A stretch of 64,000 bases of DNA from an uncultured bacterium (lineage in GTDB: Bacteria > Armatimonadota > Abditibacteriia > Abditibacteriales > Abditibacteriaceae). The stretch spans positions 2,988,375 to 3,052,374 of the forward strand of contig CAWJLW010000006.1 in the NCBI GenBank assembly GCA_963843795.1. The letters are read 5' to 3'. Shown piece after piece: positions 499 to 62,410 of the stretch. Below the pieces are notes generated by a model. The model was not told the origin of the DNA. It searched no databases and saw nothing but the letters and a program-made list of their open reading frames with translations. Made by a program: the position numbers and the translations under genes. Position 1 is the first letter of the stretch. Each line of letters opens with the position of its first letter.

Positions 499-609
499 AG
501 GCGGTGAAAGTGAACCGAAATACAGGCAACAAACGCCCCGCAAGTACTTGCGGGGCGAGTTTACAAAAGCGCGATTTACGCTCGAGATTCCGTTTGCATT
601 CCGCGAGAT

Positions 610-843
610 TTAACCTTTAGCTTTATTTTCATCGCTTTCCGGCACAGCCGCTTCGGCAGCTTCGAAACCGATGCGGCTGTGCGTGCCATCGCAGAACGGT
701 TTGTTAGTGCTAGCGCCGCAGCGACACAGGGAAAACTTTTCCTTGCCGATTTCGACCGGCGTGCCATCGGCCCATTCCATCTCGACATCGCCCGTCACAC
801 GCAGCGGGCCGTTCTTTGCAATCACGATTTTCACATCTGCCAT
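610..843 (-). CDS. CDGSH iron-sulfur domain protein
   Basis: NGPL...LCRCGASTNKPFCDGTH motif; AAGGAG RBS upstream. Confidence 0.9.
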   Translation of the reverse strand: MADVKIVIAKNGPLRVTGDVEMEWADGTPVEIGKEKFSLCRCGASTNKPFCDGTHSRIGFEAAEAAVPESDENKAKG

Positions 844-888
844 AATTTTTCTCCTTAATTCTCGCGCTGCAAGTACTTGCAGCGCACG

Positions 889-2043
889 TCACGCGCTTTC
901 GCTGTCATCTTCGCTCAATGAAGGGTCGCTTAAAGGGCGATCATTGAACGCGCTATCCAAGCGCACGCGCAGCAGATGCGGGCGCAGCATATTAGCGCGT
1001 AACTGGTCGCGTTCTTCGGCTGCTATAGCGCGGCCATGCAAAACTTGTAGGTAAGCGGGACGAATCCACACCATAAGTTCGTTGAAACGCTGACGCGTCA
1101 AGCCTTTGACCCAGTTCATTTCGTGGCCCAGCCGTAGCGCCGACAAATGTTCGGTCGCTTCGCGGCATCCGATGCGGCGAGCGTTGCGCAAAATGCCGAA
1201 AGCGCGACCGATGCCGTCGCGGGTTTCGCTTTCCCATTTTTCGGGCAACCTGGCGCGCGCCTCGCGCTCCATCTCGCACATCTCGCGCGCCGCGCGTTCG
1301 ATGTCCAGCAAAATTTGCGCTTCATCGGTGCCAATCGCGTTTTGATTCGACAATTGATGCACATCGCCCCACAATTTCGAGCCTTCGCCAAACGTGCCGC
1401 GCAAAACCAGACCACGATTTTCGCACCATTTGCGCGTGCGCTCGGTTTTGCCACTGATTTCCAGTGCCGGTAAATGCAACATCACGCTCGCGCGCAAACC
1501 GGTTCCCGCATTGGTCGGACAGGTCGTGAGATAACCGAATTTCGGATCGTAAGCAAAGCCACCACGACTGTCAAAGTGCGCTTCCAAAGCGTCGTCCAAC
1601 TTGTCGGCGAGATTAAATGCCGCGTCGAGTTGCAAGCCGGGCAGAAGGCTTTGCACGCGCAAATGATCTTCCTCATTGACCAGAACCGAAAGCGAAGCAT
1701 CGGAGCACGCGGCCAAACCGCGACCGAGTTCATCTTTGATATGTTCGCGCGAAGTGAGATGGCGGTCGATCAGACTTTGACGCTCCCAACCGGTGAACTC
1801 TTCAAAGGGCAGCAAGTGCGCGCCCGACAAGCCGCCGGGATTGTCGCCTGTGAGATGCAAAGCGGTGAAAATGCGGTGACGAATTAAGACCAAATCGTGG
1901 GCGGTGGCGCGGTGCGGAAATTCGAAGCGACGCAGGTTGCGCGCCAGTCGCACGCGCGACGAAAGCACGATATCGTTATCGCGCCCGCCGCGTCGCATCC
2001 AGCGCGCGGCACGGTCGAAACAGGTCAGCAAAAGTGGAGACAT
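889..2043 (-). CDS. mcsB: Protein-arginine kinase McsB (ATP:guanido phosphotransferase)
   Basis: SSRVRLARNL, VNEEDHLR, GYLTTCPTNAGTGLRASVMLHLPAL; adjacent to mcsA. Confidence 0.9.
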   Translation of the reverse strand: MSPLLLTCFDRAARWMRRGGRDNDIVLSSRVRLARNLRRFEFPHRATAHDLVLIRHRIFTALHLTGDNPGGLSGAHLLPFEEFTGWERQSLIDRHLTSREHIKDELGRGLAACSDASLSVLVNEEDHLRVQSLLPGLQLDAAFNLADKLDDALEAHFDSRGGFAYDPKFGYLTTCPTNAGTGLRASVMLHLPALEISGKTERTRKWCENRGLVLRGTFGEGSKLWGDVHQLSNQNAIGTDEAQILLDIERAAREMCEMEREARARLPEKWESETRDGIGRAFGILRNARRIGCREATEHLSALRLGHEMNWVKGLTRQRFNELMVWIRPAYLQVLHGRAIAAEERDQLRANMLRPHLLRVRLDSAFNDRPLSDPSLSEDDSESA

Positions 2044-2086
2044 ACAAACTTAATCGGCTTCAATGCGCTGCAAGTACTTGCAAGGT

Positions 2087-4126: not shown

Positions 4127-4204
4127 TTTTGCGCAGAGAGATTTGAGAGAAATCCCCCTGCAAGTACTTGCAGGGGGATTTCTCTCAAATCTCTCTGCGC
4201 AAAA
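4127..4204. repeat. 78-bp perfect palindrome centred on the iterated motif
   Basis: ttttgcgcagagagatttgagagaaatccccctgcaagt|acttgcagggggatttctctcaaatctctctgcgcaaaa, checked base by base. Confidence 0.95.
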
Positions 4205-45672: not shown

Positions 45673-45707
45673 TGGGTTACAATTGAACTATATCTCAGAG
45701 GCCCGCT

Positions 45708-46918: not shown

Positions 46919-47809
46919 ATGCACATTCAATGTAAAGCTCCGGTGCGCGTCGATTTTGCGGGCGCGTGGACGGACGTTAAATTCTTTGCCGATGCCTTCG
47001 GCGGAGCGACGGTCAACGCCGGAATTAATCATTATGTCACCGGCCAAACGCGCAGTGGCGCGCACGCGCCAGGCGAAGGCATTTGCGTCAATTACGAAAC
47101 CGAAATCCCTGCCGGTTCGGGCCTGGGAACTTCATCCGCCCTCAATGTGGCGTGGCTTTCTCTGGCGCGCGGACATCAGCCGCGCAATCGCGAAGAACGC
47201 GGCCAAATTGCCGAGCAAGCTTATCAAGTCGAAACCGTATTGGGCATTTTAGGCGGCAAACAAGATCAATACGCCGCGGCCTTTGGTGGCTTTCACTTGT
47301 ATGAATTCGAGGCCGATAAAGTGCGCGCGATTCCGATTAATATCACGCGTGAAAGCGCTGGCGAACTGAATTCGCTTCTGACGCTTTGCTACACCGGACA
47401 GGCGCGATTGTCGTCGAATCTGCACTCGAATGTGTGGAATGCGTTCCGCGCGGGCAACCCCGCAGTCGTACAATCGTTGTTTGCACTGCGCGAAGCCGCT
47501 TATCGTGCCCGCGATATTTTGGAGTGCGCCGACTGGGACGCGTTCGGGCCGTTATTACAGCATCAACAAAATTGCGCCTCGCAGTTGGACGCCAGCATTT
47601 CCAATGCGCGCATCGCAGAAATTTTTCAGTTGGTCGCGCCGCACACAATGGGCGGAAAATGTTGTGGTGCAGGCGGAGGCGGCTGTATTTTATTCGCCTC
47701 GCCAGATAGTAAATCGCAACAACTCGCCGCGCAGAAGTTACGTGCGCACGACATTCGCGTCATCGATTTTCAGTGGGATTTCGATGGCCTGACTTTAACC
47801 CAATACTGA
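46919..47809 (+). CDS. GHMP kinase (HddA/sugar kinase-like)
   Basis: APVRVDFAGAWTD, PAGSGLGTSS, GKQDQY, GAGGGG. Confidence 0.88.
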   Translation: MHIQCKAPVRVDFAGAWTDVKFFADAFGGATVNAGINHYVTGQTRSGAHAPGEGICVNYETEIPAGSGLGTSSALNVAWLSLARGHQPRNREERGQIAEQAYQVETVLGILGGKQDQYAAAFGGFHLYEFEADKVRAIPINITRESAGELNSLLTLCYTGQARLSSNLHSNVWNAFRAGNPAVVQSLFALREAAYRARDILECADWDAFGPLLQHQQNCASQLDASISNARIAEIFQLVAPHTMGGKCCGAGGGGCILFASPDSKSQQLAAQKLRAHDIRVIDFQWDFDGLTLTQY

Positions 47810-47884
47810 CGCCCGCAAGTACTTGCGGGCGCATCGGCAGCCACTGCCAGTACTTACAAAGCAAACTCCTCACTTTATTCCGTT

Positions 47885-48328
47885 ATGAATCGTTTCGTTT
47901 TCGTCCCATTTTTCGCTCTTACTTCAATTTTCACCCCCCAAATTCAAGCCGCACCAACCGGACAAACCACTGCTGCAAAGAAAACCGTCGCGACGCGCGC
48001 TGCGGTGAAATCTGTCGTGCTAAGCAAAGGTTTCGCGAGTAAACCGCTCGAAATCACCAAGCAATTTTCACCCAAAGACGCCGAACTTCATGCAGTTGTA
48101 ACTTTAGATAAGCCCAGCAGCGGCGATCACATTAAAATTATCTGGATTATCGAAAACGCTGGCGGCGTGAGAAACTACCGCTTCGCGCGAAAAGTCGTCA
48201 CGACGAAGAATAATCGTGTCGTCCATTTCGCTACCACGTTCAAAGGCGATTGGCCGCGCGGCAAATATCGCGTCGATGTGTATTCCAACGGAATGCGTTC
48301 TGGCCAAGCCTATTTTCACGTCGAATAA
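47885..48328 (+). CDS. Secreted hypothetical protein (Ig-like beta sandwich)
   Basis: Signal peptide; WPRGKYRVDVYSNG. Confidence 0.7.
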   Translation: MNRFVFVPFFALTSIFTPQIQAAPTGQTTAAKKTVATRAAVKSVVLSKGFASKPLEITKQFSPKDAELHAVVTLDKPSSGDHIKIIWIIENAGGVRNYRFARKVVTTKNNRVVHFATTFKGDWPRGKYRVDVYSNGMRSGQAYFHVE

Positions 48329-48487
48329 ATTCAATTTCGACTCAGAAAATTGAATTTAAAGAAATGCTGGCGCTGGCTGTTGGTCAACGTTAACAATCAT
48401 TCTATTTTTGCCGCAGTGCAGTTCGACATCGGTAAAGCCAAACAGTGTGCTGCAAGTACTTGCAGCGCGTGTTTTCAGTTGATGCTT

Positions 48488-50314
48488 TTACGGTAATTTA
48501 AACTCGACGGTTTTCATCTGTCCGGCTTTGTCCAGCGAAACTTTTTGCGTGGCGCGCTGGCCGTTCTTGGTGACAACGATTTCGTAATCGCCCAGAAAGG
48601 CGCGCGTTTGCAGTGTGCCATCGGCTGCGCTGGGCGCAAGGAGATTGGTGCGCCATTGTTTCTGCACCAAATCGAGCCAGACTTGACCGTTGGGTTTGGG
48701 CGTCCAATCGCGCTTCCACAGCGCGGCGTCGGGCGCGTAATGACGCCCTTCCCAAAATCCCCACATCAGCACGCCATTCACTGCGGGATGGCTGAACATC
48801 GCGGTCAAAAAGTCGCGCGTGAAATCGGCTTGCAAGGCTTCGCTGGGAACTTGCACATCGAATTCAGTGATTTGAATCGGCAAATTGAACTTCGACAGAT
48901 CATCCAGAATTTCCAACATCCTTACCGGCGGCGTCAAATCGGAGCCGAAGTGACCTTGAATTCCGATTCCGTCGATGGGCGCCTTTTCTTTTTGGAGAAA
49001 CGCGATGGTATCTGAAAAATGCTTCTGATGCGCGCGATCATTGCCGCCCGACGCCAAAATCCCGTAATCGTTGAGATATAAGCGCGCTTGCGGATCGGCG
49101 CGGCGCGCGGCCCGAAACCATTCGCTTTGGGCTGATGGCCCCAGCAAATCAATGATGTCGTGATTTTTATACGGTTCGTTCAACACGTCCCAATCGTGCA
49201 ACTGACCGCGCAGCGCGCTCACTTCGTCGGTGATATGAGCCGCCATCGCGCGCCTCACCGCGTCGGGATCGCCTTTCATGTCTTGCAATTGCGAGGGCGA
49301 ATGTTTCCAGCTCGGCCACACCAAAACGTGACCGCGCGCTTCGATTCCGGCTTCGCGCAGCCATTTGAGCGCTTGCTGTGGCGTTTCGCGGTCGGCTTTC
49401 CATCTATCCCATTTCAAATCGTTCTCGAACACGATGCGATTGAATTGCGACTTCACCATTTCCTGATATTTGCGGTCGGCGGCATCGCTCGAAATCAACC
49501 CTTTGGCGCTCACGGCTGAGCCGAACGCGAACGCTTGTCGCGTTTGCCGAATCGTAATTTCCGCGCCCGAAACCGGGTGTCCGGCGCGGTCGCGCACGCT
49601 GATTTTCAAATCGCCCTTGCGAATTTTTTCGATACGTTCCTGCGCCGCTTTGCGCCAGGCGGCATTGGGTTCGTTGCCCGCGTAAGTGAGTTTGGTGGCT
49701 GGTAGCGATTCTTTCGCCACACTTTTGGCGTAATTGAGCAGCGAAATTCCGGCGATTTCCACGATTTGCGGCCCGTAACCCAAACGCAAATTCATCACAG
49801 CTTCGCCCGGCGCGTAATCGTCTGCCGCACGAAATGGGAAATCGAAGCGTTTCCACGTCGTGCCCACGCTGGTTTCATAGCCGAACGAGCGCTTGAAGTC
49901 GGGCGTCGCCTGTTCAAAAGTGAAACCGATAAAGCCTTCCTGCATCGGCGATTCGATGGTGCGCGCCCAAAACGACGCCAGTAAAATATCGCCTTTGGCA
50001 ATCGGCTCCACGTTGCGCGACGCAAGTTGAATGTCGTAAGGGCGCGGCGGCGGAACCATGGTGCGCACGCGCAAAGCGCGCTCGAAATCGGGCGTTTTGG
50101 CATCGACAGTTGTGACCTGAGCATCGCCCGCTTTGGGGCCACCCATTTTGAAACTCGATAGCGTATCGGCGGGCAGCAGAGAAATTGCGTTGCCAGCGCT
50201 CTTGGAGGTTTTGACTTCAATAGCACTCGTTTCGGGAACTTGAGCGCACGAGGCGACGGTGTGTGTGGACATGAGAATTAACCACGCACTGTGTGACCAG
50301 AGGGAAAATTTCAT
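48488..50314 (-). CDS. Secreted GH10 glycoside hydrolase (endo-xylanase-like) with N-terminal CBM-like domain
   Basis: FENDLKW, RGHVLVW, WDVLNEP, GIGIQGH, ITEFD, WGFW. Confidence 0.9.
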   Translation of the reverse strand: MKFSLWSHSAWLILMSTHTVASCAQVPETSAIEVKTSKSAGNAISLLPADTLSSFKMGGPKAGDAQVTTVDAKTPDFERALRVRTMVPPPRPYDIQLASRNVEPIAKGDILLASFWARTIESPMQEGFIGFTFEQATPDFKRSFGYETSVGTTWKRFDFPFRAADDYAPGEAVMNLRLGYGPQIVEIAGISLLNYAKSVAKESLPATKLTYAGNEPNAAWRKAAQERIEKIRKGDLKISVRDRAGHPVSGAEITIRQTRQAFAFGSAVSAKGLISSDAADRKYQEMVKSQFNRIVFENDLKWDRWKADRETPQQALKWLREAGIEARGHVLVWPSWKHSPSQLQDMKGDPDAVRRAMAAHITDEVSALRGQLHDWDVLNEPYKNHDIIDLLGPSAQSEWFRAARRADPQARLYLNDYGILASGGNDRAHQKHFSDTIAFLQKEKAPIDGIGIQGHFGSDLTPPVRMLEILDDLSKFNLPIQITEFDVQVPSEALQADFTRDFLTAMFSHPAVNGVLMWGFWEGRHYAPDAALWKRDWTPKPNGQVWLDLVQKQWRTNLLAPSAADGTLQTRAFLGDYEIVVTKNGQRATQKVSLDKAGQMKTVEFKLP

Positions 50315-50390
50315 AAGTTTTCGGAGGCCAATTTGGGTTTATCGGGCCCTGCAAGTACTTGCAGGGCTGGAGAAATGAAAACACTGCCAT

Positions 50391-51164
50391 TTAATAAGTT
50401 TGTCCGTCGCTGACATGGAAAGTGGGATCGTTGCCAGATTCCGCGAAGGGACGTTCGCGACCCCACACTTTGGAACTGGTAGTCGCGGTTTCGGCTTTGA
50501 ACCATTTAGCATGTCCATCGGCGAACAAGAAGTTGGAACCTTCCAAATGACGCAGCAGTTGTCCGCTGCCCACTGTCGCGCCTCTGCCGCCGGTCGGCGT
50601 GCCGCCGGAAAACGCGCTCGTCTGCGTAACGGCGTTGCCGGGCGCACATTCGTAAACGTGGATGGTCAGCGAAGCGTATTCCAACGCCGACAAATTGACT
50701 TCCGGCATATTGCCCGTGCCTCGCCCCATCAAATTATTGTAGCCATAATCGGTGAAACCGACTTGCGTCGAATCGGGATTCGGCCCCATCGAATCGCTGG
50801 GACATTGCAAAAGTTGCGTGCTCTTGGTGTAGGGATACAGGGCGTCCGCCCAACCGTAAGGATACGTATAAGGCGGAGCTTTGGTCGCGCCCGACAATGT
50901 CGATAACTGCAAACGCGGGAATCTTTCGTCGTAATCCTGCGTGTATTGCATGAAACCCAAGCCCATCTGCTTCATGTTGCTTAAGCACGAAGTCTTGCGC
51001 GCATTCTCACGCGCTCGGGCAAAAACCGGAAACAAAATCGCCGCTAAGATAGCAATAATGGCGATGACAACTAACAGCTCGATGAGCGTGAAACCTTTGG
51101 CTTTGGCATCACAGCGCGGTTTTAGGTTGGTGACGAAACGCGAGGCAATAACAGAATTTGACAT
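50391..51164 (-). CDS. DUF1559 prepilin-type N-methylation / H-X9-DG domain protein
   Basis: [70 protein letters not shown]. Confidence 0.92.
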
Positions 51165-51235
51165 AACGATCTCCTTTGGTTGGGCATTATAAACGCCGAA
51201 AACAAGTTTGAAAATAACTTTGTATCGTGTGGCAA

Positions 51236-52282
51236 TCACGGAGCAAATGCGGCAGTGCTTTGACGTACAGCGAGTTCACCGCGCAGCGTGCGCAGACGGA
51301 ATGGTTCCTGGCAATCGCCGTTCAAACGCTGCATCAGCAGATCGACAACGCTCTGTGCGATTTCATCGACAGGATGCGAAACGCTGGTCAGCGGCACGCT
51401 GGCGTAACGCGCAATGGGTCGATCATCGTGTCCGACCACCGAAACATCTTCGGGGACGCGAAAACCGGCATCTTGCAACTGGGATATAAAGGCGACGGCA
51501 GCGAAATCATTGACGATGCACACCGCTGTAGGCTTATGCAGTAGATCGAGAAAATACTGCGCCATGCGGACGCCATCGTCTTCAAATTCGCCGTAAGAAT
51601 CGCTGCCAAAAAGCCATTCTTCGCGCGGCTGCAATTCGTGTTCACCCAACGCGCGCGTGAGTCCTTCCAAGCGCACTGGAGTTGGACGCGGACAGCTCAC
51701 TTCAAAAAAACCAATGTCGCGGTGTCCAAGATCGAGCAAATGTTTGGCAGCTTGATAAGTGTTGTCGGCACGGTCGAAAACAACTTGGTCGCATTTGCAG
51801 GTTACAGAACGGTCGTAGCAAATTAAAACGCCTCCTTCGGCACGATAGCCTTCCAAAGCATCCAAAACTTCGAGCGGTAAGTCGGTGGTGTTACAAATAA
51901 TGGCGCGCGGGCGCTGCTGACACAGCAAACGTATTTCGCGCACCGCGTTTAACGCATTACTTTTGTCTGGATAGTTACAAACATGAATTGGCACATCGAA
52001 GCCTTGATTCGCCAACAATTTGCGTATTGCCTTGATTTTGCGCGTGCCTACACTTAAATCCAAATCTAACGTGAAAAGCCCGATGCTGTGGCTCAAACCT
52101 TTGCCCTGCAAGCGGCGCGCGTTCGCGTTGGGCTCGAAACCCAATTCGTTCGCTACCTGCAAAATCATCGCTTTGGTCGTGTCTGCCAAACGACCGTTGC
52201 CAGTCAAAGCCGCCGATACTGCTGACTTGGAAACGCCCGCAGCTAACGCCACATCCCGAATCGTCACTGCACTTTTAAGCAT
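51236..52282 (-). CDS. LacI family transcriptional regulator
   Basis: [44 protein letters not shown]. Confidence 0.93.
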
Positions 52283-52290
52283 AAATCACC

Positions 52291-52319
52291 TGCTGAACCG
52301 TTCCAGCAATTTAATTATA
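52291..52319 (-). promoter_or_regulatory. Putative LacI-type operator and -10 box upstream of the regulator
   Basis: Quasi-palindrome TGCTGAACCGTTCCAGCA (52291-52308); TATAAT on the minus strand at 52314-52319. Confidence 0.55.
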
Positions 52320-52352
52320 ACCATTACTTCAAGTTTTGTAACCCCCAAATCA

Positions 52353-52388
52353 AAAAACCTCACTGCAAGTACTTGCAGTGAGGTTTTT
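52353..52388 (-). terminator. 36-bp perfect palindrome with tails downstream of rpmB
   Basis: aaaaacctcactgcaagt|acttgcagtgaggttttt. Confidence 0.65.
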
Positions 52389-52404
52389 GGGGTTGAAAAA
52401 GATT

Positions 52405-52638
52405 TTAAGCCGCTTGTTTTTTGCGGGCTTTGGCGATGGTCGAAGCGGCACCGTTGCGCGACATGGCTTTGATGGCGCGCGTCGAGATTTTCATCTTGAC
52501 GAAGCGACCTTCTTCGGGAATCCACACGCGTTTGGTTTGCAAATTCGGCATCTGGCGGCGCTTGGTGTGACGCATCGAGTGCGACACCGAGTTGCCAGTC
52601 ATCGGTTTCTTTCCAGTAATTTCACAGCGATTGGCCAT
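52405..52638 (-). CDS. rpmB: 50S ribosomal protein L28
   Basis: MANRCEITGKKPMTGNSVSHSMRHTKRRQMPNLQ; GGAGG RBS. Confidence 0.96.
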   Translation of the reverse strand: MANRCEITGKKPMTGNSVSHSMRHTKRRQMPNLQTKRVWIPEEGRFVKMKISTRAIKAMSRNGAASTIAKARKKQAA

Positions 52639-52701
52639 TTTTAGTTCCTCCAATAAAAGCTCCGCCAGTGTAACTGTTTCACCGGCAAAGTTCAACTCGC
52701 T

Positions 52702-52748
52702 AAAACTGCCCTGCACGTACTTTCGGCAAGTACGTGCAGGGCAGTTTT
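52702..52748 (-). terminator. 21-bp-stem hairpin built from degenerate motif copies
   Basis: aaaactgccctgcacgtactt-tcggc-aagtacgtgcagggcagtttt. Confidence 0.7.
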
Positions 52749-52776
52749 TTATCGATTTCGTGTTTGGCTTTGCGTT

Positions 52777-54408
52777 TTACGCTTGATTGTCGGGCACAGA
52801 TTCGCCGCTGTGGTCGTCGAAACCGTCGCCATCGTGATCGTGGTTCTGGTTCGGCAGTGGTTGGTAATAATTACCGACGTTGGGTGGCGCTTCGGGCGCG
52901 GCGTTGACATCGCCGTCTTTGCGCGATTCTTTTACTGCGTCCACAATGGCTTTCGGCGCTTCAAAGCCGTATTTATCTTCGTAATCCAAGGTGCGGCGGC
53001 GCGCATAGAAATCGAGAGTCTTGCGCGCACGGGCGCGATACCACATTTCGTACGCCTGCTTGGCCAGTTCACGTTTTTTGGTCGGATCGCTTTGGGCTTC
53101 AGTCATGCGGTCGTATATTTTGGCCAGAAAATGAATACCGATGTCTTGCGATGAATTTTTCTCATCGCTGCGCATTTTCTCCAATTCAGCCTTGATCGCT
53201 TCGGGCGCATCTCCATTAAGCTCCAAAATCTTGGCCAGCTGGGGCAAACCTTGCAAATGGTATTTGGGATTAGCGTTCATCACGCCCACCATTTTATCAA
53301 TCGCCTGCTGATAGTCGCCTTTTTTATACAAATTCCACGCGGGAAGATAGCGCGCCGAAAGCGTGATGTAACCGCCCGTGGGCTGATCGTTGCGCGCCTG
53401 CATCTTTATGCGCATTTTGTGCGCCGCCACGATTTTTTCCACATCGGGCACGATAGCTTTGATGCGGCTTTTTAAAACCGCGTCGCCTTTTTCGTAAGCC
53501 GTGGCAATTTTCTCGTAGTCGCTGCCATACAACGACCAGTAACGACCGACTTCGCGCAGTTGGGCCAATTCCGCCGGCGTTCCCTGCAACAAATCTTCGC
53601 CGTATTGCTTCAAAGCCAAATCGATTTCGGGCACACCTTCATACAGGTGAGCAATGGTGCGCCCTAAAATATCGACACCCTCTTTTTTAACAGTTTGCGG
53701 CTTCCCATTGACCAAAGTATCGATTTCGATCTGGCGAGCATCGCTCTGCGCGCGCGCTTTACGATACAGTTCAACGGTTTCTTCGTCGTAATAGCCGGCT
53801 TTTTCCGCCCGCGTCCAGCCATGCTCGAACCACAGGCGATATTTTTCGGGGTTCTGTTCCGAACCGCGCCGCAGGTAATCCAAACCGGTTTCAATCGCTT
53901 TGTCTTGTAATTTGCGGATTAGTTTCGGATTGTCTTTGTATTTCGGATTCAGTTCGATGTCGGCGTAAATGTTATACGCCCAGTGCCAGCCCGCCGTTGA
54001 CCACGCATCGATGAACTGTGGGTCGAGCGTCACTACGGCTTCCATCAACGGATTCTGGCGCGTGGTCAAACCTTTGTGCCAGTATTCATCCGATTTCATC
54101 CACAACAAGTTGGCCACCTGGCTTTTAAAGCCCGACGCCAAACCCGCCACCATCAGCGACGACAACACGCGCAAATCGAGCTTAGCCGTATATTCGTCCT
54201 GATCTGGCGTTTCTTTGTTCGATGAAGCTGCCAGCACGCGATCCAACCATTGCATCGAAGGGCCATACTGTTCGCGTTCAAGTGCGCGTTGCTTCTTTTG
54301 ATCTTTAACGTCGAACGACATCGAGCGCATCTGCATCACGTCGCCCTGCGCCGCGTTATAGGCCACGAGCAACAAACCGCTCGCCGCCAAAAGTCCCCAT
54401 TTGGACAT
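52777..54408 (-). CDS. Membrane-anchored TPR-like helical protein (XapA/PilG-like)
   Basis: N-terminal hydrophobic segment; ANLLWMKSDEYWH...TLDPQFIDAW...W..AYN. Confidence 0.65.
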   Translation of the reverse strand: MSKWGLLAASGLLLVAYNAAQGDVMQMRSMSFDVKDQKKQRALEREQYGPSMQWLDRVLAASSNKETPDQDEYTAKLDLRVLSSLMVAGLASGFKSQVANLLWMKSDEYWHKGLTTRQNPLMEAVVTLDPQFIDAWSTAGWHWAYNIYADIELNPKYKDNPKLIRKLQDKAIETGLDYLRRGSEQNPEKYRLWFEHGWTRAEKAGYYDEETVELYRKARAQSDARQIEIDTLVNGKPQTVKKEGVDILGRTIAHLYEGVPEIDLALKQYGEDLLQGTPAELAQLREVGRYWSLYGSDYEKIATAYEKGDAVLKSRIKAIVPDVEKIVAAHKMRIKMQARNDQPTGGYITLSARYLPAWNLYKKGDYQQAIDKMVGVMNANPKYHLQGLPQLAKILELNGDAPEAIKAELEKMRSDEKNSSQDIGIHFLAKIYDRMTEAQSDPTKKRELAKQAYEMWYRARARKTLDFYARRRTLDYEDKYGFEAPKAIVDAVKESRKDGDVNAAPEAPPNVGNYYQPLPNQNHDHDGDGFDDHSGESVPDNQA

Positions 54409-54502
54409 AATTCACCTCTGATTTTGTGACTCACACCAGATCGCAAGTACTTGCAGCAAGTAATCGCCGGAAGCTTGTGCGTTGGAAGATTGAAATTTGA
54501 AA

Positions 54503-55597
54503 TTAAAATTCGCGGTCGCTGAAGATGAAATACGCTACGCACAGAACCGCAGCGACGTAAATCAGGCCGCCGCCGAAGGCTTTCCAGGCGTAATTGAAAG
54601 CGACCGGCATATCATTGACCAGACGTTCACGCACATCGAAACGATCCAAACGCGGCACGAAAACATAAATCGCTTTGATGACCGCCGAGATCGGTGCCGA
54701 AACGCTACCCTGCCCGCCGCTGCTGAGATGTTCCCAGTAAGAAGCCGCCTGTCCGCAAAAATAAATCACGAATGAAAACACGACCGCCGCGATGTGAGAC
54801 AGCACCAACGAAAGCGTCATCGCGACCGCTGCCATCATCATCAGCGCGCCGTAATGCAGCAGAAGTGCGCGCGCCAGATTGCCCAACTTGAAAACCATGC
54901 CCGGATGTCCGGCATATACGTTGAAGGCATCGCCAAAACCGCCAGTTTCGCGCCGCACTAAAAACCACGCGTAAGTGAGCAAAAACATCAGGCCCATAAT
55001 CGCCAGCGACACCAAAAGTGTCAGGCACAAGCCGAGATATTTGCCCAGAAGAAATTCGATGCGGTCGATGGGTTTCGACAGAATCGTGAAAATCGTGCGA
55101 CGCTCAATGTCGGGCTGAATCAAGCCCGCGCCCAGAAAAATTGCCATCACGGTTGTAATAATGACCGTGAAACCAAGACCAAAATCGCGCACGAATTTTT
55201 CTTCCGAACCTTGCTGCATCCAGGTAAAAAACAGCGAAATCGGAATCAGCACAATGGCAAACATCAACAGGGTCAGCATCCAGCGCCGCCGCAACGCTTC
55301 CTGCCACGTAGTGAGGGCGATGGTGCCCACCGCGGGCGTCGTTAGCCACACCAGCGCCAGCAAAACCACAAAGCCCAGCATATCGCCCAAGCCAATGGAA
55401 TCGGCCAATCCGCTTTCGCCAGCCGGACTTTTGTATCCGCTCATTAAATACCAGAGCGCAACTAAAGCGATGACGATACTGACTGCGATTTGTCCGGCGC
55501 GCCAGCGCGAGGGAATCGCAACGCGACCCGTTTGTGAAATCGGCGCATCGCTTTTGGGCGCGTTGCCGCTGCCAATCGCCGAAGGGGAAACACTCAT
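54503..55597 (-). CDS. ABC transporter permease (PilI/XapB-like)
   Basis: Multi-TM; DIERRTIFTILSKPIDR.EFLLGKYLG, C-terminal FSDREF. Confidence 0.85.
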   Translation of the reverse strand: MSVSPSAIGSGNAPKSDAPISQTGRVAIPSRWRAGQIAVSIVIALVALWYLMSGYKSPAGESGLADSIGLGDMLGFVVLLALVWLTTPAVGTIALTTWQEALRRRWMLTLLMFAIVLIPISLFFTWMQQGSEEKFVRDFGLGFTVIITTVMAIFLGAGLIQPDIERRTIFTILSKPIDRIEFLLGKYLGLCLTLLVSLAIMGLMFLLTYAWFLVRRETGGFGDAFNVYAGHPGMVFKLGNLARALLLHYGALMMMAAVAMTLSLVLSHIAAVVFSFVIYFCGQAASYWEHLSSGGQGSVSAPISAVIKAIYVFVPRLDRFDVRERLVNDMPVAFNYAWKAFGGGLIYVAAVLCVAYFIFSDREF

Positions 55598-55660
55598 AAA
55601 TTCTCCGAATACTCACGGCTGCAAGTACTTGCAGCCCCAACTTAACTTACCGATTGACAA

Positions 55661-56716
55661 TTAACGCCCGTCGCTTTTCACACTGCGTACAAAAACATCT
55701 TCCAGCGTTTCGGTGTGACCTTGCACATCGAGCGTGCGCGCGTCGCAATCGCGGATGAATTTCAATACGTCGTCCAATTCTTCGCTCGAGTCGGCGTGGA
55801 AACGAATGTGGCCGTTTTCTTTTTGCCATTGAGGTGCATTGGCCTGCTGCAAGGCTTCATCAGCGAAATTAGTGGCAAAAACTTCAAAGCTTTGGCTCGG
55901 CCCGACGAGTTCGGGAACCGTTCCAAACTTCACTAACTTGCCTTCGCTTAGAATCGCCACCCGGTCGCAAATCGCCTGCACATCGGCCAGCAAATGCGAA
56001 CACAACAAAACGGTTTTACCTTGATCGCGCACAGCCAGGATCGCGTCTTTCATCTGACGCGCGCCAATCGGGTCGAGACCGGTCGTGGGTTCGTCCAAAA
56101 ACAACAGTTCAGGATCGTTAATGAGCGCTTGCGCCAAGCCGACGCGCTGCATCATACCTTTGGAATAAGTGCGAATCACGCGCGAGCGGTCGGCTTTGTT
56201 GAGGCCGACCATATCGAGCAGTTCTTCTTTGCGCTCGTCGCGGCGCGCGCGGTCGTATCCGAACAATTTGCCGTAGAAATCGAGCACTTCGTACGAGTTG
56301 AGATGGTCGTAGAAATATGGGCCATCGGGCAAGAAGCCGATGCGCTGTTTCACGGCCACATCGCGCGGGCCGCGTCCAAAGATTGAAATCGTGCCCGAAG
56401 TCGGTTTAATTAAACCGAGCAGCAATTTCAGCGTCGTGGTTTTGCCGCTACCGTTAGGGCCGACCAGACCAAAAATTTCGCCGCGCTTCACATCAATCGA
56501 CAATTCTTCCAAGGCGGTTTTGCCGCTGCGCGAGAAAGGTGCGCGATAAGTTTTGCGCAGTTTTTGCGTTTGAATGATAATGTCGCCCTGACCCTCGGCT
56601 ACGGGCGCATTGGGTGTGAGAACTGCTTTGGGTTGAACGTTTTCTGATTCCATCGTGATTTCCGCGTTGCCAACTGAACTGCCAACTGTTGCGTCTGGCG
56701 TAGTTTGATTCGCCAT
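55661..56716 (-). CDS. ABC transporter ATP-binding protein (exporter type)
   Basis: GPNGSGKTT, YSKGMMQR, LDEPTTGLD, SHLL. Confidence 0.92.
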   Translation of the reverse strand: MANQTTPDATVGSSVGNAEITMESENVQPKAVLTPNAPVAEGQGDIIIQTQKLRKTYRAPFSRSGKTALEELSIDVKRGEIFGLVGPNGSGKTTTLKLLLGLIKPTSGTISIFGRGPRDVAVKQRIGFLPDGPYFYDHLNSYEVLDFYGKLFGYDRARRDERKEELLDMVGLNKADRSRVIRTYSKGMMQRVGLAQALINDPELLFLDEPTTGLDPIGARQMKDAILAVRDQGKTVLLCSHLLADVQAICDRVAILSEGKLVKFGTVPELVGPSQSFEVFATNFADEALQQANAPQWQKENGHIRFHADSSEELDDVLKFIRDCDARTLDVQGHTETLEDVFVRSVKSDGR

Positions 56717-56960
56717 GAGCGCGCCTCCAAAAGTAAAAAATAAAAATAATTTCGCTGATGCGACGTATCAGTATTCACAACGTTGCGCACTCTCGTGCAC
56801 TTCGGTTGCATCCTGTTTTGCGGCGCATTGAATCGCAGCGTCGCGCGTTTCAAATTACCCCGTAGCACACGTTTTCTAACTCGCCCAGTTTACGAATACG
56901 CACGCTGACGCGCAGACGCGAAAAGGCCCTGCAAGTACTTGCAGAGCCTTGAAAGGACGT

Positions 56961-58109
56961 TCAAACAGTCAATTCTCGGTAAAAATCGTAGATTTGGCGC
57001 GTGCCTTCGGCGATATGAAAGCGCTGCGAAACGCTGGGCCGCGAATGTTCGCGCAAATGTTCCAGCAGCACATTATCAGTCAAAATACGGCACATTGCGT
57101 GCGCCAGACTGTCAGTTTCATCGGGCGAAACCAGCAGTCCATCGTGCTCATGATTGATAATTTCCAGCGGGCCATTCTTGGCATAGGCAATAACGGCTTT
57201 ACGCATCACCATGCCTTCGATTAAGACGCGCCCGAACGGTTCTTCTTTCGAGGCGAGCACAACTGCATCCAGAGACGAAATCGCTTCGACGTTGTTGTTC
57301 TGGTGTGGCACGAAATGAAAACGGTCGTCCAATTTATGATGCTTGACGCGCGCGTGCAACGATTTCACATAACCAGCGTGCTCGCTCCACAAATCGCCAC
57401 CCATAATGACGAAACGGGCGCGGTCGCATTTATCATTGGCGCAAACTTTGGCCGCTGCGTCGATGAAATCAAGGTGATTCTTCCACGGCACCAGTTGGCC
57501 TACACAACCGAAAACAAAAGCGTCGGGCGCAAAATTCAAAGCATCGCGAAATGTGTGCGGTTTGGCGGCGGGCGGATGCGTTTGCCACTTGTCGGGGTCG
57601 ATGCCGTTGCGCACGATACGGATTTTCTGCGGCGGAACGCCATCGCGCTGCAAGGCTTCGGCAACACAGCCCGAAATCGCGATCACCAGCGTCGCGCGTT
57701 GCGCTAGTTGCGACCCAATGCGCGCCAAATTCACCATATCGCGCGCGTGCCAAATCGTGGGAATTCCCAAACGTTCGGCAGCTAATCCGCCCACCAGATG
57801 CGCGGTCGTCGAATTGGAATGCACAACTTGTGCGTTTAAATTACGCGCCAGCCTCGAGATGTGCGGTGCGGTTTGCAAAACGTGCGCGAGCGTGGTCAAA
57901 CCAGAAATAAAATTGGTCGGGCGCTGCAAACGACGCAGCGGCACAAAGCTGACCGCCCAACCTTCGTCGCGCAACTGATCGGCAAATGGCCCGCTGCTTG
58001 GCAAAGCGATGGTCGCGTCGATGTCGTCGTGCGAGCGGCGCAATTCGTGCAACAACGCATGCAACGACTGCTCGCCACCACTGATCTGCGAAGTGTGATC
58101 GAGATACAA
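56961..58109 (-). CDS. Glycosyltransferase family 4 (start ambiguous)
   Basis: SGGEQS, VRNGID, VGQL.PWK, EPFGRVLIEGM. Confidence 0.9.
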   Translation of the reverse strand: MYLDHTSQISGGEQSLHALLHELRRSHDDIDATIALPSSGPFADQLRDEGWAVSFVPLRRLQRPTNFISGLTTLAHVLQTAPHISRLARNLNAQVVHSNSTTAHLVGGLAAERLGIPTIWHARDMVNLARIGSQLAQRATLVIAISGCVAEALQRDGVPPQKIRIVRNGIDPDKWQTHPPAAKPHTFRDALNFAPDAFVFGCVGQLVPWKNHLDFIDAAAKVCANDKCDRARFVIMGGDLWSEHAGYVKSLHARVKHHKLDDRFHFVPHQNNNVEAISSLDAVVLASKEEPFGRVLIEGMVMRKAVIAYAKNGPLEIINHEHDGLLVSPDETDSLAHAMCRILTDNVLLEHLREHSRPSVSQRFHIAEGTRQIYDFYRELTV

Positions 58110-58289
58110 AACTTGAATTTTTTCATCTCTCTGCTTTTGGGTCTCGAAAATAGCACACCTCCCAAATCATCAATGCAATCGTCTCTGCGTGCTTTCATCC
58201 TAACACGTTCAAATTTCACCCGGCGTCACAGAGATTTCAGACATTAATCGAGCCAGCAAGTAGTTGCTGAACTTCACGTTCTTACATCC

Positions 58290-60053
58290 TCACAATTCGA
58301 GCACTTCGTCCAGCCACTGTTGCGAATGCGCGATGACTTCGTTTTCCCATTCCAGCCCGTAATACGAATGATTGGCACCTTCAATAAGATGTGAATAAGC
58401 TTGCGGTTGTTGCTCTCGATACCACGCCAACGCTTCGGTCGTCGTAGGGTCGGCGCTACCATAAACCAGCAACAGCGGACGATGAGCGCGATTCCAGCGC
58501 GCGAAACCACTCAGCGCGCTTTCGCGCCAACCGCGCGGCAGTTGGCCGGGCGCGTCCGATTCGATATTTCTGCTTTCGCCGCCCTTGCTACTCATCACCT
58601 GCGCCACGCGCGAAGCATCGACTTCGCCGCGCAGCAAACGTTTATAAGTCGAAAAACTCAACAGCTTATGCGCGTATTTTTTCAAATTCGCCACGCGTTT
58701 ACGCGCATCGCGCGCGCCCGAACCACGCGCTGCAACAATCGGCGCGCTCCACAGAATCATCGCCGCCACATCGCTTTCCAGCGCGCCGACTGCTACTTCG
58801 CAGCCCGAACACAAACCCAGCAACACAATCGGTGCATCGCTTTGTTCGCGACACCACTTCATCATATCGCGTGCGTCATCGGCCATCGTCGCTAAAGTCG
58901 CCAGTTCGGTTCGCCCGTCGCTATCGCCGCGTCCAGCGAAATCAAAGCGCAACAGGTTATAATCGTCTGTCCAACGCCGCGCCGCGCGCGCCAACATTTG
59001 GTGCGGGCCGGTTCGGTAACCGCTCCAACCATGCAGCATTACAATCGTTGCGCGCGCCGTTTTCGCCCCGTTTTGCGCCAGATGCCAGGTCGCCACCAAG
59101 CGCTCATCACGCCGGTTGCTCACAATCAGCGCCCGTTCACCGTTGCAAGTACTTGCAGAGCGCCGTGCAACATTTTCGTGATCGCAAGTACTTGCAGCGG
59201 GCGCAATGGCGCTTTCTTCTGGGAAAATTTGTGCCCACAATTTTTCACTGGGCGCGTGATCGAGCAAATTCCAAAACGGTTGTGCGACAATCGCACTCGC
59301 GGAAATCTGACGCGCTTCGCACCAGTTTTTCAACGCATTGGACACTTCGCTTCTGGCACCGATTTGAAAAACCTGCACGCGCATCGATGCGGGCCAGTTG
59401 CGCTCATTTTCCAAATCTAAAGCCCGTAAATCGGCCTGCAATTTTTCGCCAATTGGCCAACCATCCAAATCGAAAACATCCGATTCGCTATTCGGAATTT
59501 GCGACGTTTTGGCTTGGGCGTTATCGTTGGGATTGCCTTCTTGGCTGGTAATTTTGGCGCGCAATTTTTGGCGCATCGCCATTTCGCTCCAATAGCGTTG
59601 CCCACTGAGAATCGGCTCCAGCAAAATTACGTGCTTCAAACTGTCACGCCAAGAATCCGTTTGCGAGTTCGCGTTGTTTTCACCCGAAATTTGCGCCGCT
59701 AAAGCAGCACCCAGACGAACACCAAGCAAGCCCAACGGCGCATTGGGCACACGGCGACGCACTTCTTCGATAGCGCTTAAAATATCGTCGCGCCAATTAT
59801 CGAGAGTTTGTTGAGCGAAGTCGCCGCAACTATCGCCCGCGCCCCGCGCGTTGAACAATAAAACGGCGTGACCGCGTGCGGCCAGCCAGCGCGCGCCTTC
59901 GTTCAAGGTACGACGCGCGCTTTTGTCCTCCTCGCCAAACGGCGCACAAAATATCCAAACCTGTCGGATATTTTGCTGAGGCGCGTGCCATACGCCGGAC
60001 AACATAGCCTGCGGGCCAAAGAAAAAGTGTTCCAGACGGGTCGAATTTTCCAC
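58290..60053 (-). CDS. Fused tandem alpha/beta hydrolase (exosortase-associated hydrolase 2-like plus hydrolase 1-like)
   Basis: Domain 1: PFGEE, GAGDS.G, GVRLGA, PFW. Domain 2: YRTGPHQ, RFDFAGRGDSDG, GLCSG, GANH. Confidence 0.78.
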   Translation of the reverse strand: MENSTRLEHFFFGPQAMLSGVWHAPQQNIRQVWIFCAPFGEEDKSARRTLNEGARWLAARGHAVLLFNARGAGDSCGDFAQQTLDNWRDDILSAIEEVRRRVPNAPLGLLGVRLGAALAAQISGENNANSQTDSWRDSLKHVILLEPILSGQRYWSEMAMRQKLRAKITSQEGNPNDNAQAKTSQIPNSESDVFDLDGWPIGEKLQADLRALDLENERNWPASMRVQVFQIGARSEVSNALKNWCEARQISASAIVAQPFWNLLDHAPSEKLWAQIFPEESAIAPAASTCDHENVARRSASTCNGERALIVSNRRDERLVATWHLAQNGAKTARATIVMLHGWSGYRTGPHQMLARAARRWTDDYNLLRFDFAGRGDSDGRTELATLATMADDARDMMKWCREQSDAPIVLLGLCSGCEVAVGALESDVAAMILWSAPIVAARGSGARDARKRVANLKKYAHKLLSFSTYKRLLRGEVDASRVAQVMSSKGGESRNIESDAPGQLPRGWRESALSGFARWNRAHRPLLLVYGSADPTTTEALAWYREQQPQAYSHLIEGANHSYYGLEWENEVIAHSQQWLDEVLEL

Positions 60054-60102: not shown

Positions 60103-60357
60103 TTATTCTTTTTTGTCGCGCACAAAGGCGGCGATGGAATTCACATCTTGGAAAGTATCGATTTGAAAATCGACTTCATCCATCGCGACCTCAAACTCTT
60201 CTTCCAAACCGACGACCAGTTCAAACAAGGCCACTGAATCAACGTCGTAGGTTTCCATCAGTGGTGTATCGTCTTCGATGTCGGTCGGTTCAATATCTAA
60301 AAATAAGCGCTCGACGATCATTGTTTTCAAGCGCGATTTCAACACGTTCACATCCAT
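60103..60357 (-). CDS. Acyl carrier protein
   Basis: 84-aa acidic protein; VDSVALFELVVGLEEEF. Confidence 0.88.
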   Translation of the reverse strand: MDVNVLKSRLKTMIVERLFLDIEPTDIEDDTPLMETYDVDSVALFELVVGLEEEFEVAMDEVDFQIDTFQDVNSIAAFVRDKKE

Positions 60358-60363
60358 AATTTC

Positions 60364-61374
60364 TTACTCCATCAAACTTTGTTCGGCTGGCATCAAAACG
60401 CGCGGCAAAACCGTTAAACACGTCACGCACCACGCCAGGCCAATTGTGTAACCGCCCAGCACATCGCTGGGGAAATGCACGCCCAGATAAATGCGACTCA
60501 AGCCCGTCAATAGCACAACCGCAGTCGCCCACAGCGCAAAGGGCAGCGTAAACAAAGCGGGTGCGCCGATAAAAGCCATTGTCCACACCGCGCCAACCCA
60601 GAAACAAAACGAGGTCAGCGAGTGGCCCGAAGGAAATGAGCCATCCTGCAACTTGTGACCAAACGCGCCGGCTTTGCGTTGCGGGCGCAAGCGTTTAAAA
60701 ACGCGTTTGAGCACCCACGACATTAACATTGCACCCGAATAACACAAGCCCGGCATCAGCCACGGCAGCGCGTCGCGCCACGCCAACTCCGGTGCGCTGT
60801 GCCCCTGCACCAGCCACGCTGGCACTTTGCCCAACAAATTTCGCGAAAGCGCATAAATTATCAACGGCGCGCCCAAGGAGAAGGTGCACAGGGCGGGTGC
60901 CGAAGCGAGATTCGTCCAAAAGCGAAAAAACCATGTTAGCGGTACACGCTCGCGCGAATCTTCATCGTCTAACTCGCGCGCCATCTCGTGCGCCGCTTCG
61001 CTATCGTCGGGCTGCTGTGGCAAATCGCGCAGCACATCCGGCAATGTGGCAGGTAAAACGCGTGAGGGCGCTTCGAGCGACAAGTCGGGCGTCACATCGG
61101 CGCGCGAACCTGCCAACTCCAGACGCGCCGCGCGCCGCGCTTCATAGCGCGTGGCATCGGGATGAGCGGCGCGATAACGCAGCGTCTTCGCCCACGTGCG
61201 CACTCCATCGTCCAACTTCATTAAACCGGGCCGCACTTGCTGTTTGAAAGCTTTGAAAACAATCACCAAAACGGTAAAAGTGCCCAGCCACGCCACACTT
61301 TCGGCCCACAGAGCGCGCGGCAGAACATGCCACAAAGCGACGAAAAATTCGCGCGCTGCATCCAGTAACTTCAT
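60364..61374 (-). CDS. PAP2 family phosphatase
   Basis: KRVFKRLRP, SFPSGH, SRIYLGVHFPSDV. Confidence 0.9.
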   Translation of the reverse strand: MKLLDAAREFFVALWHVLPRALWAESVAWLGTFTVLVIVFKAFKQQVRPGLMKLDDGVRTWAKTLRYRAAHPDATRYEARRAARLELAGSRADVTPDLSLEAPSRVLPATLPDVLRDLPQQPDDSEAAHEMARELDDEDSRERVPLTWFFRFWTNLASAPALCTFSLGAPLIIYALSRNLLGKVPAWLVQGHSAPELAWRDALPWLMPGLCYSGAMLMSWVLKRVFKRLRPQRKAGAFGHKLQDGSFPSGHSLTSFCFWVGAVWTMAFIGAPALFTLPFALWATAVVLLTGLSRIYLGVHFPSDVLGGYTIGLAWCVTCLTVLPRVLMPAEQSLME

Positions 61375-62255
61375 ACTTTTTCTCCAATGCCTTCCAAACC
61401 GAGCGCGCCCCAGTCAATTTCGTCGATTGAACATTTGGGCAGTTCGCGCCACGCGGTCTGCGCTTCTTCTGGCCCGGCTTCATACTTGAACATTTGCGAC
61501 CAGCGCTTTTTGAACGTGATGCCATTTTTGGTCGTGACGTATTTGAAATTGATGTCGCCACTGCCCGCTGTTGTCGTGTGTTCGAAGTGATACATGTGCG
61601 CTTGCGGCTGCACGCAACAACTCCAGCCAGCTTGACGGGCGCGATAGCAAAAATCTAAATCTTCATATTGCACCGGTGAATAAATTTCGTCGAGCACGCC
61701 AATCTGCTGCACCAGCGCGCGCCGCATCAACCACGCAGCCGAAATTAAGCATTGCACTTCGAACGGTTGCGTCCAATTTTCGCTGGCTTCACCGCGCCCC
61801 AGATATTGAATGCGACCTTGTTTGGAAACGCCGACGCCACAACATTCGATAGCAAAAGGCGACCAGGGAAAGAGCAATTTCGGTGCAACAATTCCACATC
61901 TGTGGTTTTCCGGCAGCGAAAAAAAGCTCAGTAAGCGTTCCAGCCAATCGACTTGGGCCAGTAACATATCGTTGTCCAAAAACCCCAGAAAGTCGCCCTC
62001 GGCAATTTCTAACGCCGCATTGCGTCCTGCCACCGCTCCCACGTTGGAACCGAAATTCAACCGTTTGGTTTGCACATCGTGCGCGTGCGCCAAGCGTTCC
62101 CATTCGTCCAGAACGCGGGGAGTTTCATCCTGCGAACCATTATCGACGTTGATAATTTGCAGCGGACGATAGTTGGAACGGAGCAGCGAATGCAAGCAGG
62201 CGCGCGAATAATGGGCTTTGTTGTGGTGCAGCAGAATTAGCGAAACCGTTGACAT
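61371..62255 (-). CDS. Glycosyltransferase family 2
   Basis: VDNGSQD, N.G...GRN, FLDND, YEDLDFCYR. Confidence 0.9.
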   Translation of the reverse strand: MSTVSLILLHHNKAHYSRACLHSLLRSNYRPLQIINVDNGSQDETPRVLDEWERLAHAHDVQTKRLNFGSNVGAVAGRNAALEIAEGDFLGFLDNDMLLAQVDWLERLLSFFSLPENHRCGIVAPKLLFPWSPFAIECCGVGVSKQGRIQYLGRGEASENWTQPFEVQCLISAAWLMRRALVQQIGVLDEIYSPVQYEDLDFCYRARQAGWSCCVQPQAHMYHFEHTTTAGSGDINFKYVTTKNGITFKKRWSQMFKYEAGPEEAQTAWRELPKCSIDEIDWGALGLEGIGEKV

Positions 62256-62410
62256 AATCGAGAAAAGAATTTTGGTAACCACAGCGCTCTGCAAGTACTT
62301 GCAGCAAGTGCCTGCCAAGCACAAAAATGCTCATCGAACGGTGAAAAGCACAGCGCATCCTACAACAAAAGGCGTAACGGGCACAAACGCAAAATTTGAA
62401 ACACCAACAC

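Follow-up and report, generated by a model that had tools for sequence, protein, structure and literature searches.

The question raised by this locus is why a single 12-bp palindrome, GCAAGTACTTGC, should recur along a bacterial chromosome, between genes and inside them alike. The DNA analysed was a stretch of 64,000 nucleotides (the window; contig CAWJLW010000006.1, positions 2,988,375 to 3,052,374) of the genome under study (G000), that of an uncultured bacterium placed in the family Abditibacteriaceae by its IspG protein (81–88% identity). The iterated palindrome is a real and confirmed observation. On comparative grounds, and with somewhat less than an even chance of being right, it may be regarded as a species-specific DNA uptake signal, a "self" tag.

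The exact GCAAGTACTTGC was found 46 times in the window, between positions 540 and 62302, and 0 times in 100 dinucleotide shuffles; the core CAAGTACTTG was found 48 times. In the gene set made for this analysis, 36 of the cores were intergenic and 12 coding, and 34 of 54 gene junctions were occupied. Apart from the shuffles, these counts had been given in an earlier reading of the letters alone (the initial annotation) and were reproduced exactly. The claim that the iteration lay far above chance held genome-wide: 2,567 copies were observed, compared with 0.12–7.4 expected under Markov models of order 2–5 on the masked genome. The palindrome was the most frequent 12-mer and occurred on all 11 contigs (4,299,948 bp), so it is not limited to one of them, and its density along the 3.6-Mb main contig was 30–83 copies per 100 kb. 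The consensus was sharp (2,567 perfect, 506 one-off and 371 two-off copies), and 66 copies carried one additional central base. One-off variants numbered 110, 40, 62, 154, 60, and 80 per dyad position, with no excess at the outer bases. The gene calls made 85.6% of the genome coding, and the copies were split into 753 coding, 1,228 in co-directional gaps, 295 in convergent gaps, 268 in divergent gaps, and 23 at edges or ends, 70% of them being intergenic.

An assembly or sequencing artefact was considered at this point, as indel-type breaks do exist in the assembly (frameshift-type breaks in 5 of 50 orthologues genome-wide). This explanation is refuted, and its probability is negligible. Independent contigs from two public soil runs (one study, contigs only) covered four copies with 0–1 differences, coding copies were in frame, dialects of the word were found in separately assembled genomes, and the identical core was present in metagenome contigs of relatives with 60–69% GC.

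The origin of the coding copies was traced in 48 orthologue alignments against a genome of the same genus (56 kb) and in genome pairs of the sister genus. Most coding copies aligned gap-free to their orthologues and differed from them by substitutions, which often changed amino acids; between close relatives, coding copies were retained. QVLA, KYL, and ASTC were found in G000 where relatives had RVL, EYS, and STR. In the proteome, QVLA occurred 568 times, compared with 47 for EVLA, 60 for RVLA, and 40 for KVLA, and 505 of the 568 were encoded by the motif, although GTA is the rarest valine codon; 113 of 131 ASTC were likewise motif-encoded. Because the coding copies align gap-free and reshape the encoded peptides, the copies arise in place by point substitution, and repeat insertion is excluded as the main route.

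The same alignments bear on a repeat of the repetitive extragenic palindromic (REP), miniature inverted-repeat transposable element, or Ssn type, spread by an HUH nuclease (REP-associated tyrosine transposase, RAYT) or a GIY-YIG nuclease. Short palindromic hairpins in gaps are also typical of REP and bacterial interspersed mosaic elements with RAYT and of Neisseria NTS/dRS3 repeats with Ssn nucleases, as described in the relevant passages of PMC11893778; the repeat unit of the relative G006 is a 25–26-bp palindrome, and there is one Y1 nuclease gene in G000. This reading is nevertheless already largely refuted and retains scarcely any probability. Unlike such repeats, the G000 copies are made by substitution, common in coding DNA, unclustered (only two clusters of four near-copies within 400 bp), without shared flanks, and not beside a nuclease gene. 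The Y1 (IS200-like) gene (G000:C6:751500-752800) was bordered by its own GTAG-tagged REP-like repeats, 15–45 of them genome-wide. No short Ssn-like GIY-YIG nuclease was found in G000, G012, or G006, and among five genomes Ssn-like nucleases were found only in G009. A UvrC-like GIY-YIG paralogue that seemed motif-linked in five genomes was rejected, as it was present in 25 of 26 family genomes. No match to any REP or highly iterated palindrome (HIP) family was found, as the initial annotation had supposed.

Spacing was analysed genome-wide. The word occurred about every 1.7 kb (1.5–2 kb) through native DNA. The density of coding copies was 0.58 per 10 kb at up to 150 nt from an intergenic copy and 6.0 per 10 kb at 2–2.5 kb, an approximately tenfold difference; it dropped again beyond 3.5 kb, where numbers were small. 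Three control words showed no comparable rise with distance, and one-off copies rose weakly. Genes of 900–1,500 nt with 0, 1, and 2 motif-bearing flanks had 4.31, 1.88, and 0.83 copies per 10 kb, respectively. The 3' zones of genes, chosen because gene 3' ends are independent of start calls, had 1.21 copies per 10 kb with a copy in the downstream gap and 3.47 without one (p 2e-8). Compared by gap class, the contrast was about twofold in the divergent, convergent, and both co-directional classes, and significant only in both co-directional ones. The coefficient of variation of the spacing was 0.69 in G000, 0.68 in G009, and 0.75 in G006, compared with 0.97–1.0 for random placement; no long-range period was detected except for a weak 10-kb peak. 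Against even spacing, the coding copies were mildly clustered among themselves below 300 nt (90 vs 63 expected). The gap filling shows that a site every 1.5–2 kb of DNA is favoured in some way. It is predicted by three models: biased uptake of kilobase-sized fragments, a repair ratchet, and a binding or surveillance protein.

With poor codon fit as a proxy for foreign DNA, the 5% of genes with the worst fit had 0.47 copies per 10 kb, compared with about 2.1. The two largest motif deserts (about 26 kb) were islands rich in insertion sequences and restriction genes. A contractile-injection-like cluster (phage tail/baseplate-like; G000:C3:2600-27300) was also without a motif copy (gene starts only). 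Nucleoid-occlusion sites (SlmA/Noc) number a few dozen and are excluded from the terminus region; the SlmA binding site, GTGAGTACTCAC, is an AGTACT-centred 12-bp dyad like the present word. The idea of a nucleoid-protein site of the SlmA type, raised in the initial annotation, was dropped, as there were about 2,600 sites and no gap at the skew-inferred terminus (25–36 copies per 50 kb, mean 31.4).

The relatives of G000 were searched for the same and for other words. The exact 12-mer had 0–3 occurrences in 40 relatives. AGTACT reached 750–1,230 per Mb in 6 of 31 genomes of the class, compared with 0.2–26 in two genera and 88–132 in three outgroup genomes. RAGTACTY exceeded 3,000 in 4 of 301 genomes of the phylum, all of them Abditibacteriaceae, and was at most 396 outside the family. 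The AGTACT-cored dialects were CAAAGTACTTTG in G001, ATCGAGTACTCGAT in G009, G015, and G019, and CGAGTACTCG in G012. In 12 metagenome loci of relatives (60–69% GC, chosen by motif scan), CAAGTACTTG occurred 114 times in 124 kb.

In G006, AGTACGGTCG was found 1,260 + 1,307 times, mainly as a 25–26-bp palindrome, RAGTACGGTCGA-W(1-2)-TCGACCGTACTY. The half-site AAGTACGGT is one base apart from the core of the Haemophilus uptake signal sequence, AAGTGCGGT in the part of PMC12616744 that lists it, a likeness that may be due to chance. Other genomes of the family had unrelated, non-palindromic words. CAGCCACGKC occurred 1,359–2,415 times in G007, G016, and G018, compared with 8–161 times in the other 28 genomes, with no strand bias, as singles and as inverted pairs (18 convergent vs 1 divergent); the extended word of these three genomes, (GACAC)CAGCCACG(T/G)C, has a layout like that of the DNA uptake sequence (DUS). 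In G020, CACAAAAAATG was counted 2,478 times, both as single copies and as inverted pairs and without strand bias, compared with 12–33 times in three relatives. The words of G007, G016, G018, and G020 do not contain GTAC. No iterated word was detected in samples (17–129 kb each) of G003, G004, G008, G010, G013, G014, G017, G021, G002, and G042. In a quick RpoB tree, G012 (positive) was sister to G017 (negative), and G020 (positive) to G042 (negative); because of these pairs, words are taken to be gained, lost, or replaced quickly.

Two side observations concern AGTACT itself. A 7.8-kb contig (G024:C98, L296) contained 9 of the 18 AGTACT sites of G024 together with a decayed G006-type hairpin and is likely foreign or mis-binned. 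Genera g2 and g5 avoided GTAC, CTAG, and several further restriction palindromes to an extreme degree (a single AGTACT in 6 Mb in G005); this avoidance was relaxed in G010, G021, and G023.

If the palindrome is an uptake signal, a competence-pilus receptor would prefer fragments carrying the word, and word-creating mutations would spread by transformation, most strongly far from an existing copy. The reader might be a pilin or another competence protein, terminator use would be a later co-option, and an adenine methylase of the family may mark the core. Uptake is favoured because the family has traits of the DUS of Neisseriaceae (receptor ComP) and the uptake signal sequence (USS) of Pasteurellaceae (predicted receptor PpdA/ComN): peptide enrichment, dialects, inverted terminator pairs, and scarcity in foreign genes. 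Among the options offered in the initial annotation, an uptake or self-recognition signal gives the best fit. It is favoured over a methylase ratchet because the non-palindromic words without GTAC are not explained by such a ratchet.

The traits of DUS and USS were taken from the portions of PMC2817400, PMC12616744, and bioRxiv 10.1101/2025.10.24.684340 that describe them. Like the G000 word, they are present in thousands of near-perfect copies, form dialects around a kept core, enrich peptides, are scarce in genes without homologues, and frequently form terminator hairpins; USS also have AT-rich flanks. In G000 and its relatives, the copy number, the substitutions in coding DNA, the scarcity in foreign DNA, the dialects, and the terminators were all found. 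The differences are that DUS and USS belong to another phylum and that Abditibacteriaceae have several unrelated words; because the G000 word is palindromic, unlike DUS and USS, a single copy forms a hairpin apex.

HIP1 (GCGATCGC, Cyanobacteria) was the closest phenomenon named in the initial annotation. It is likewise a hyper-iterated palindrome in genes and spacers, one per 1–2 kb, more even than random, with sites conserved between close relatives, dialect replacement, and an orphan methylase in the genome. HIP1 differs in being 8 bp long, compared with 12–14 bp here, and in its enrichment, which is 15–300-fold according to the relevant section of PMC5861425, compared with several hundred- to more than ten-thousand-fold here. 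Unlike HIP1, the G000 word is 70% intergenic, has a clear terminator role and a GTAC core, and is accompanied by no C5 methylase and, in relatives, by non-palindromic words; neither one-off variants biased outward nor a C5 methylase that would create G-meC was found in G000. The proposal of an undescribed, lineage-specific HIP-like system thus stands in that the word is hyper-iterated, substitution-made, split into lineage dialects, and unpublished, and it is revised in that a DUS/USS-type tag is the closer model, because the family has several words, some of them non-palindromic. HIP1 itself has been argued to be an uptake signal, at least in the pertinent part of PMC13756078. While the HIP/DUS kind of iterated word is known already, the palindrome and the dialects of Abditibacteriaceae were not found in print, in a literature search that reached few subscription papers.

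Several points weigh against uptake. Known DUS and USS words are non-palindromic and the G000 word is palindromic, non-palindromic words being found only in G007, G016, G018, and G020. No ComP/PpdA-like receptor was identified, and the minor pilins were acidic or neutral, with no clear ComP-like candidate. Competence genes are family-wide and also occur in motif-less species such as G017. The pilus operon of G000 is broken in this assembly, with two frameshifts in pilC and a split pilD. Gap filling is equally predicted by the mismatch-repair ratchet of Elhai, which saturates near one site per kb in the passages of PMC4390886 on the model. An almost identical word, again evenly spaced, is found in large phages that look lytic, in contrast to the large lytic phages of Pasteurellaceae, which are USS-poor in the data cited from PMC6776037; if the former infect Abditibacteriaceae, the reader is therefore inside the cell. 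Finally, receptors would have to change very fast for the words of close relatives to be unrelated, as in G020 and G042.

As for the machinery, ComEC was found in 5 of 5 genomes, DprA in 4 of 5, ComEA in 29 of 31, and PilT in 30 of 31, and a pilB-pilT-pilC-pilD-minor pilin operon was present. In G000 this type IV pilus operon (G000:C6:385800-402500) has several frameshifts, and one minor pilin is in three pieces. The breaks are either assembly error or real decay, an ambiguity that follows from the 5 of 50 orthologues broken across the assembly. The neighbourhoods of comEA, comEC, and dprA contained no motif-linked gene.

The only type II-like methylase of G000 (G000:C6:2517365-2518135) is a beta-class DPPY adenine methylase, present in 21 of the 26 family genomes (broken in two of these) and in 0 of 374 other genomes of the phylum searched. 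It bears on a HIP1-type by-product of methylation-directed repair, in which a methylase marks the GTAC core and strand-choosing repair fixes site-creating mutations up to about one per kb. Consistent with this, GTAC is common to all AGTAC-type dialects, the methylase is family-restricted with recognition loops invariant across dialects, and MutL was present in 5 of 5 genomes; the ratchet also predicts saturation in the passages of PMC4390886 cited above. A nuclease-like gene convergent to the methylase was found in G017, G003, and G020, and G008 has the gene too; searches of G000, G009, G012, G006, and G007 did not reveal it, and G015 had a fragment. Because the partner was not found in the AGTAC-type genomes tested (apart from this fragment), the methylase is an orphan in them.

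Other results oppose the repair model, which is considered improbable. The nearest solved structure to the methylase was M.RsrI, and M.RsrI recognises GAATTC. The contact residues of M.BceJIV, as given in the structural part of PMC11380664, are not retained. Inference of the methylase target from word depletion was abandoned: GTAC avoidance in relatives accompanies avoidance of CTAG, GGWCC, and others, and in the contrast of nuclease-present and nuclease-absent genomes GTAC ranked only 70 of 208 words. One-off variants were without an excess at the outer bases. No MutH was found in G000, G009, or G016, and no C5 or Dam-type methylase in G000. The words of G007, G016, G018, and G020 lack GTAC, and G016 had no match to the family methylase. 

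At the promoter of the methylase there were no GTAC clusters, and a single-sequence fold prediction of the enzyme reached a pLDDT of 36. The G020 methylase grouped with the G000 type and not with its own genus.

The nuclease-like partner (215 aa, no Pfam domain; L061:2378-3061, L052, L054, and L672) likely represents a new family of restriction enzymes. It received no name from Pfam, PDB, Atlas, phage, and plasmid searches; Atlas gave only a PvuII family, for 18% of one cluster, while a structure row for RE_ScaI fell below the Atlas bar. Distant homologues were found in cyanophages and Opitutaceae.

Phage sequences with similar words were examined with regard to an intracellular self-mark or chromosome-organising site, where a dimeric binder or surveillance nuclease would need one site per 1.5–2 kb of whatever DNA is in the cell, selection on the host would maintain the word, and its phages would mimic it. 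The phage record G044 (67.8 kb, 39% GC) contained 37 GCAAG-YR-CTTGC sites (20 TA, 17 CA/TG), located before ribosome-binding sites and in frame within genes. Their spacing had a coefficient of variation of 0.56 vs 0.96, and 0 of 5,000 random sets were as even. Relatives of G044 had the same word or TGCAAACGTTTGCA, and the word of phage G045 was TTGCAAG-N1/2-CTTGCAA. The evenly spaced phage words, the kilobase-scale evenness in the bacteria, and the symmetric site with flanking A-tracts are in accordance with such a site, as is the argument in parts of PMC5861425 that HIP1 acts in chromosome structure.

This explanation is regarded as fairly unlikely. No phage host link was found: 1 of 401 genomes had a 38-bp 90% match, with no CRISPR array there, and terminase and FolE searches gave no host information. 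In the phage words the outer TGCAA arms are constant and the centre varies, whereas the bacterial dialects have a constant centre and variable arms. GCGC is avoided by the phages and not by Abditibacteriaceae bacteria. There was no long-range period beyond the weak 10-kb peak and no terminus gap, sister species had no detectable word in the samples, and no candidate protein was found; AddAB/RecB-type nucleases (PDDEXK_1) were not found in G000, G009, or G017. The last result also concerns Chi, which is likewise a dispersed signal read on DNA. Unlike Chi, the G000 word is palindromic, and the non-palindromic words of relatives are strand-balanced; Ssn, Chi, and MutH readings were thus not supported by the G000 gene searches and strand balance. 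Because no host was found and the phage and bacterial words vary at opposite parts, convergence on a LacI-like operator shape is possible.

The phage clade (G044 with L249-L252; L332, L333, L338, L449, L519, L524, and L526) is tailed, with about 40–50% GC, and has evenly spaced GTGCAAG-YR-CTTGCAC or TGCAAACGTTTGCA with strong avoidance of GCGC. G044 encodes genes of the 7-deazaguanine pathway. G045 (L299, L648-L651; complete, 101 kb) had 25 GCAAG-NN-CTTGC sites and about 24 additional ones whose centre is a single base; another repeated word, distinct from these, contains TCGCCGGATTCACTAG. Among 119 loci, none was a phage clearly rich in the ATCGAGTACTCGAT dialect.

A wider proposal, held as a possibility clearly short of an even chance, is that Abditibacteriaceae run a fast-evolving self-tagging, in which each species has its own 10–26-bp word, palindromic or otherwise, per 1.5–2 kb of native DNA and within its proteins as well, and a single reader would enforce the spacing. 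The reader would be either an uptake receptor, the third to have evolved independently, or a sensor inside the cell that tells self from non-self and is mimicked by lytic phages. The AGTACT dialects may be marked by a methylase that is no longer tied to a restriction partner. If true, HIP1 and DUS would be joined as one general phenomenon. To our knowledge, publications describe sequence-specific uptake in two bacterial families, and HIP1 has been without a settled function for 30 years. The family offers both palindromic and non-palindromic words, close positive/negative pairs (G012/G017, G020/G042), and a measurable spacing rule; therefore, comparative genomics should be able to find the reader, and experiments should be able to tell the uptake, repair, and chromosome models apart. 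The words could be used as species barcodes for binning and phage-host assignment.

The form of the single copies was examined in the window, with the following features (no strand assigned unless given):

540..62302: 46 perfect GCAAGTACTTGC within 48 CAAGTACTTG cores; extended consensus CT-GCAAGTACTTGC-AG, with A/T tracts 8–11 bp outside.
4127..4204: perfect 78-bp palindrome (39-bp arms) with a copy at its apex, between two co-directional genes; terminator-like hairpin, −71.6 kcal/mol.
17468..17503: copy in a convergent gap, at the apex of a hairpin that resembles a terminator and has A and T tracts.
36654..36691: copy as a hairpin apex (arms of 19 bp) in the gap where an N-acetyltransferase gene and folC converge.
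45621..45672: copy as the apex of a terminator-like hairpin with 26-bp arms, z −8.6.
32323..32334, plus strand: coding copy in dxr, in-frame LQVLA; no stable hairpin, z +0.8; an independent contig covers it and shows 0 differences.
33306..33317: copy with short arms just 5' of the start codon, in the gap from dxr to rseP; does not form a stable hairpin, z −0.6.
37012..37362, minus strand: two coding copies in folC, aligned to the same-genus orthologue.
35857..35888: close pair of copies, 20 bp apart, 3' of ispG.
43447..43490: two neighbouring copies, 32 bp apart; a 941-bp independent contig contains the pair, with 1 difference elsewhere.
59145..59195, minus strand: two coding copies in a gene for a two-domain hydrolase.
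17265..58267: seven one-mismatch copies, at 17265, 18567, 19845, 24126, 37114, 52726, and 58256.

Across the copies, the flanks preferred CT/AG, with an A-tract 8–11 bp out on either side. Self-complementary arms of at least 15 bp were most frequent among convergent copies (62%), followed by co-directional (21%), divergent (8%), and coding ones (1%). The statement in the initial annotation that the flanks share only a CT/AG bias was therefore corrected, as it had missed the A-tracts and the self-complementary arms of many intergenic copies. The longest arms in the window (39 bp) belong to the palindrome at 4127–4204, which has no spacer and is uncommonly long for a bacterial chromosome.

On folding, long-armed examples were strong and short-armed ones were not; because of this, terminator use is real in form and confined to a subset of copies. 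An RNA hairpin, one of the options offered at first, is accordingly kept for the terminator-like structures at many intergenic copies and as a secondary role only. That the word is primarily a terminator or RNA element, recognised by a factor for RNA processing or termination, is very unlikely. The 70% intergenic share, the long arms of convergent copies, and the strong folds would suit such an element, but 753 copies are coding, in all three frames and with amino-acid changes, and 99% of these lack long arms; 268 copies are located in divergent gaps, Rfam gave 0 matches for the motif, and gap filling runs in the same direction in divergent and convergent gaps.

Two genes were noted in passing. 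Window positions 6917–8740, which lie a few genes away from mcsA-mcsB, encode an AAA ATPase of the proteasome type (pup_AAA/ARC-like, with a match under the curated cut-off). At G000:C10:211447-213078, FolE (GTP cyclohydrolase I) has a large intein-like insertion.

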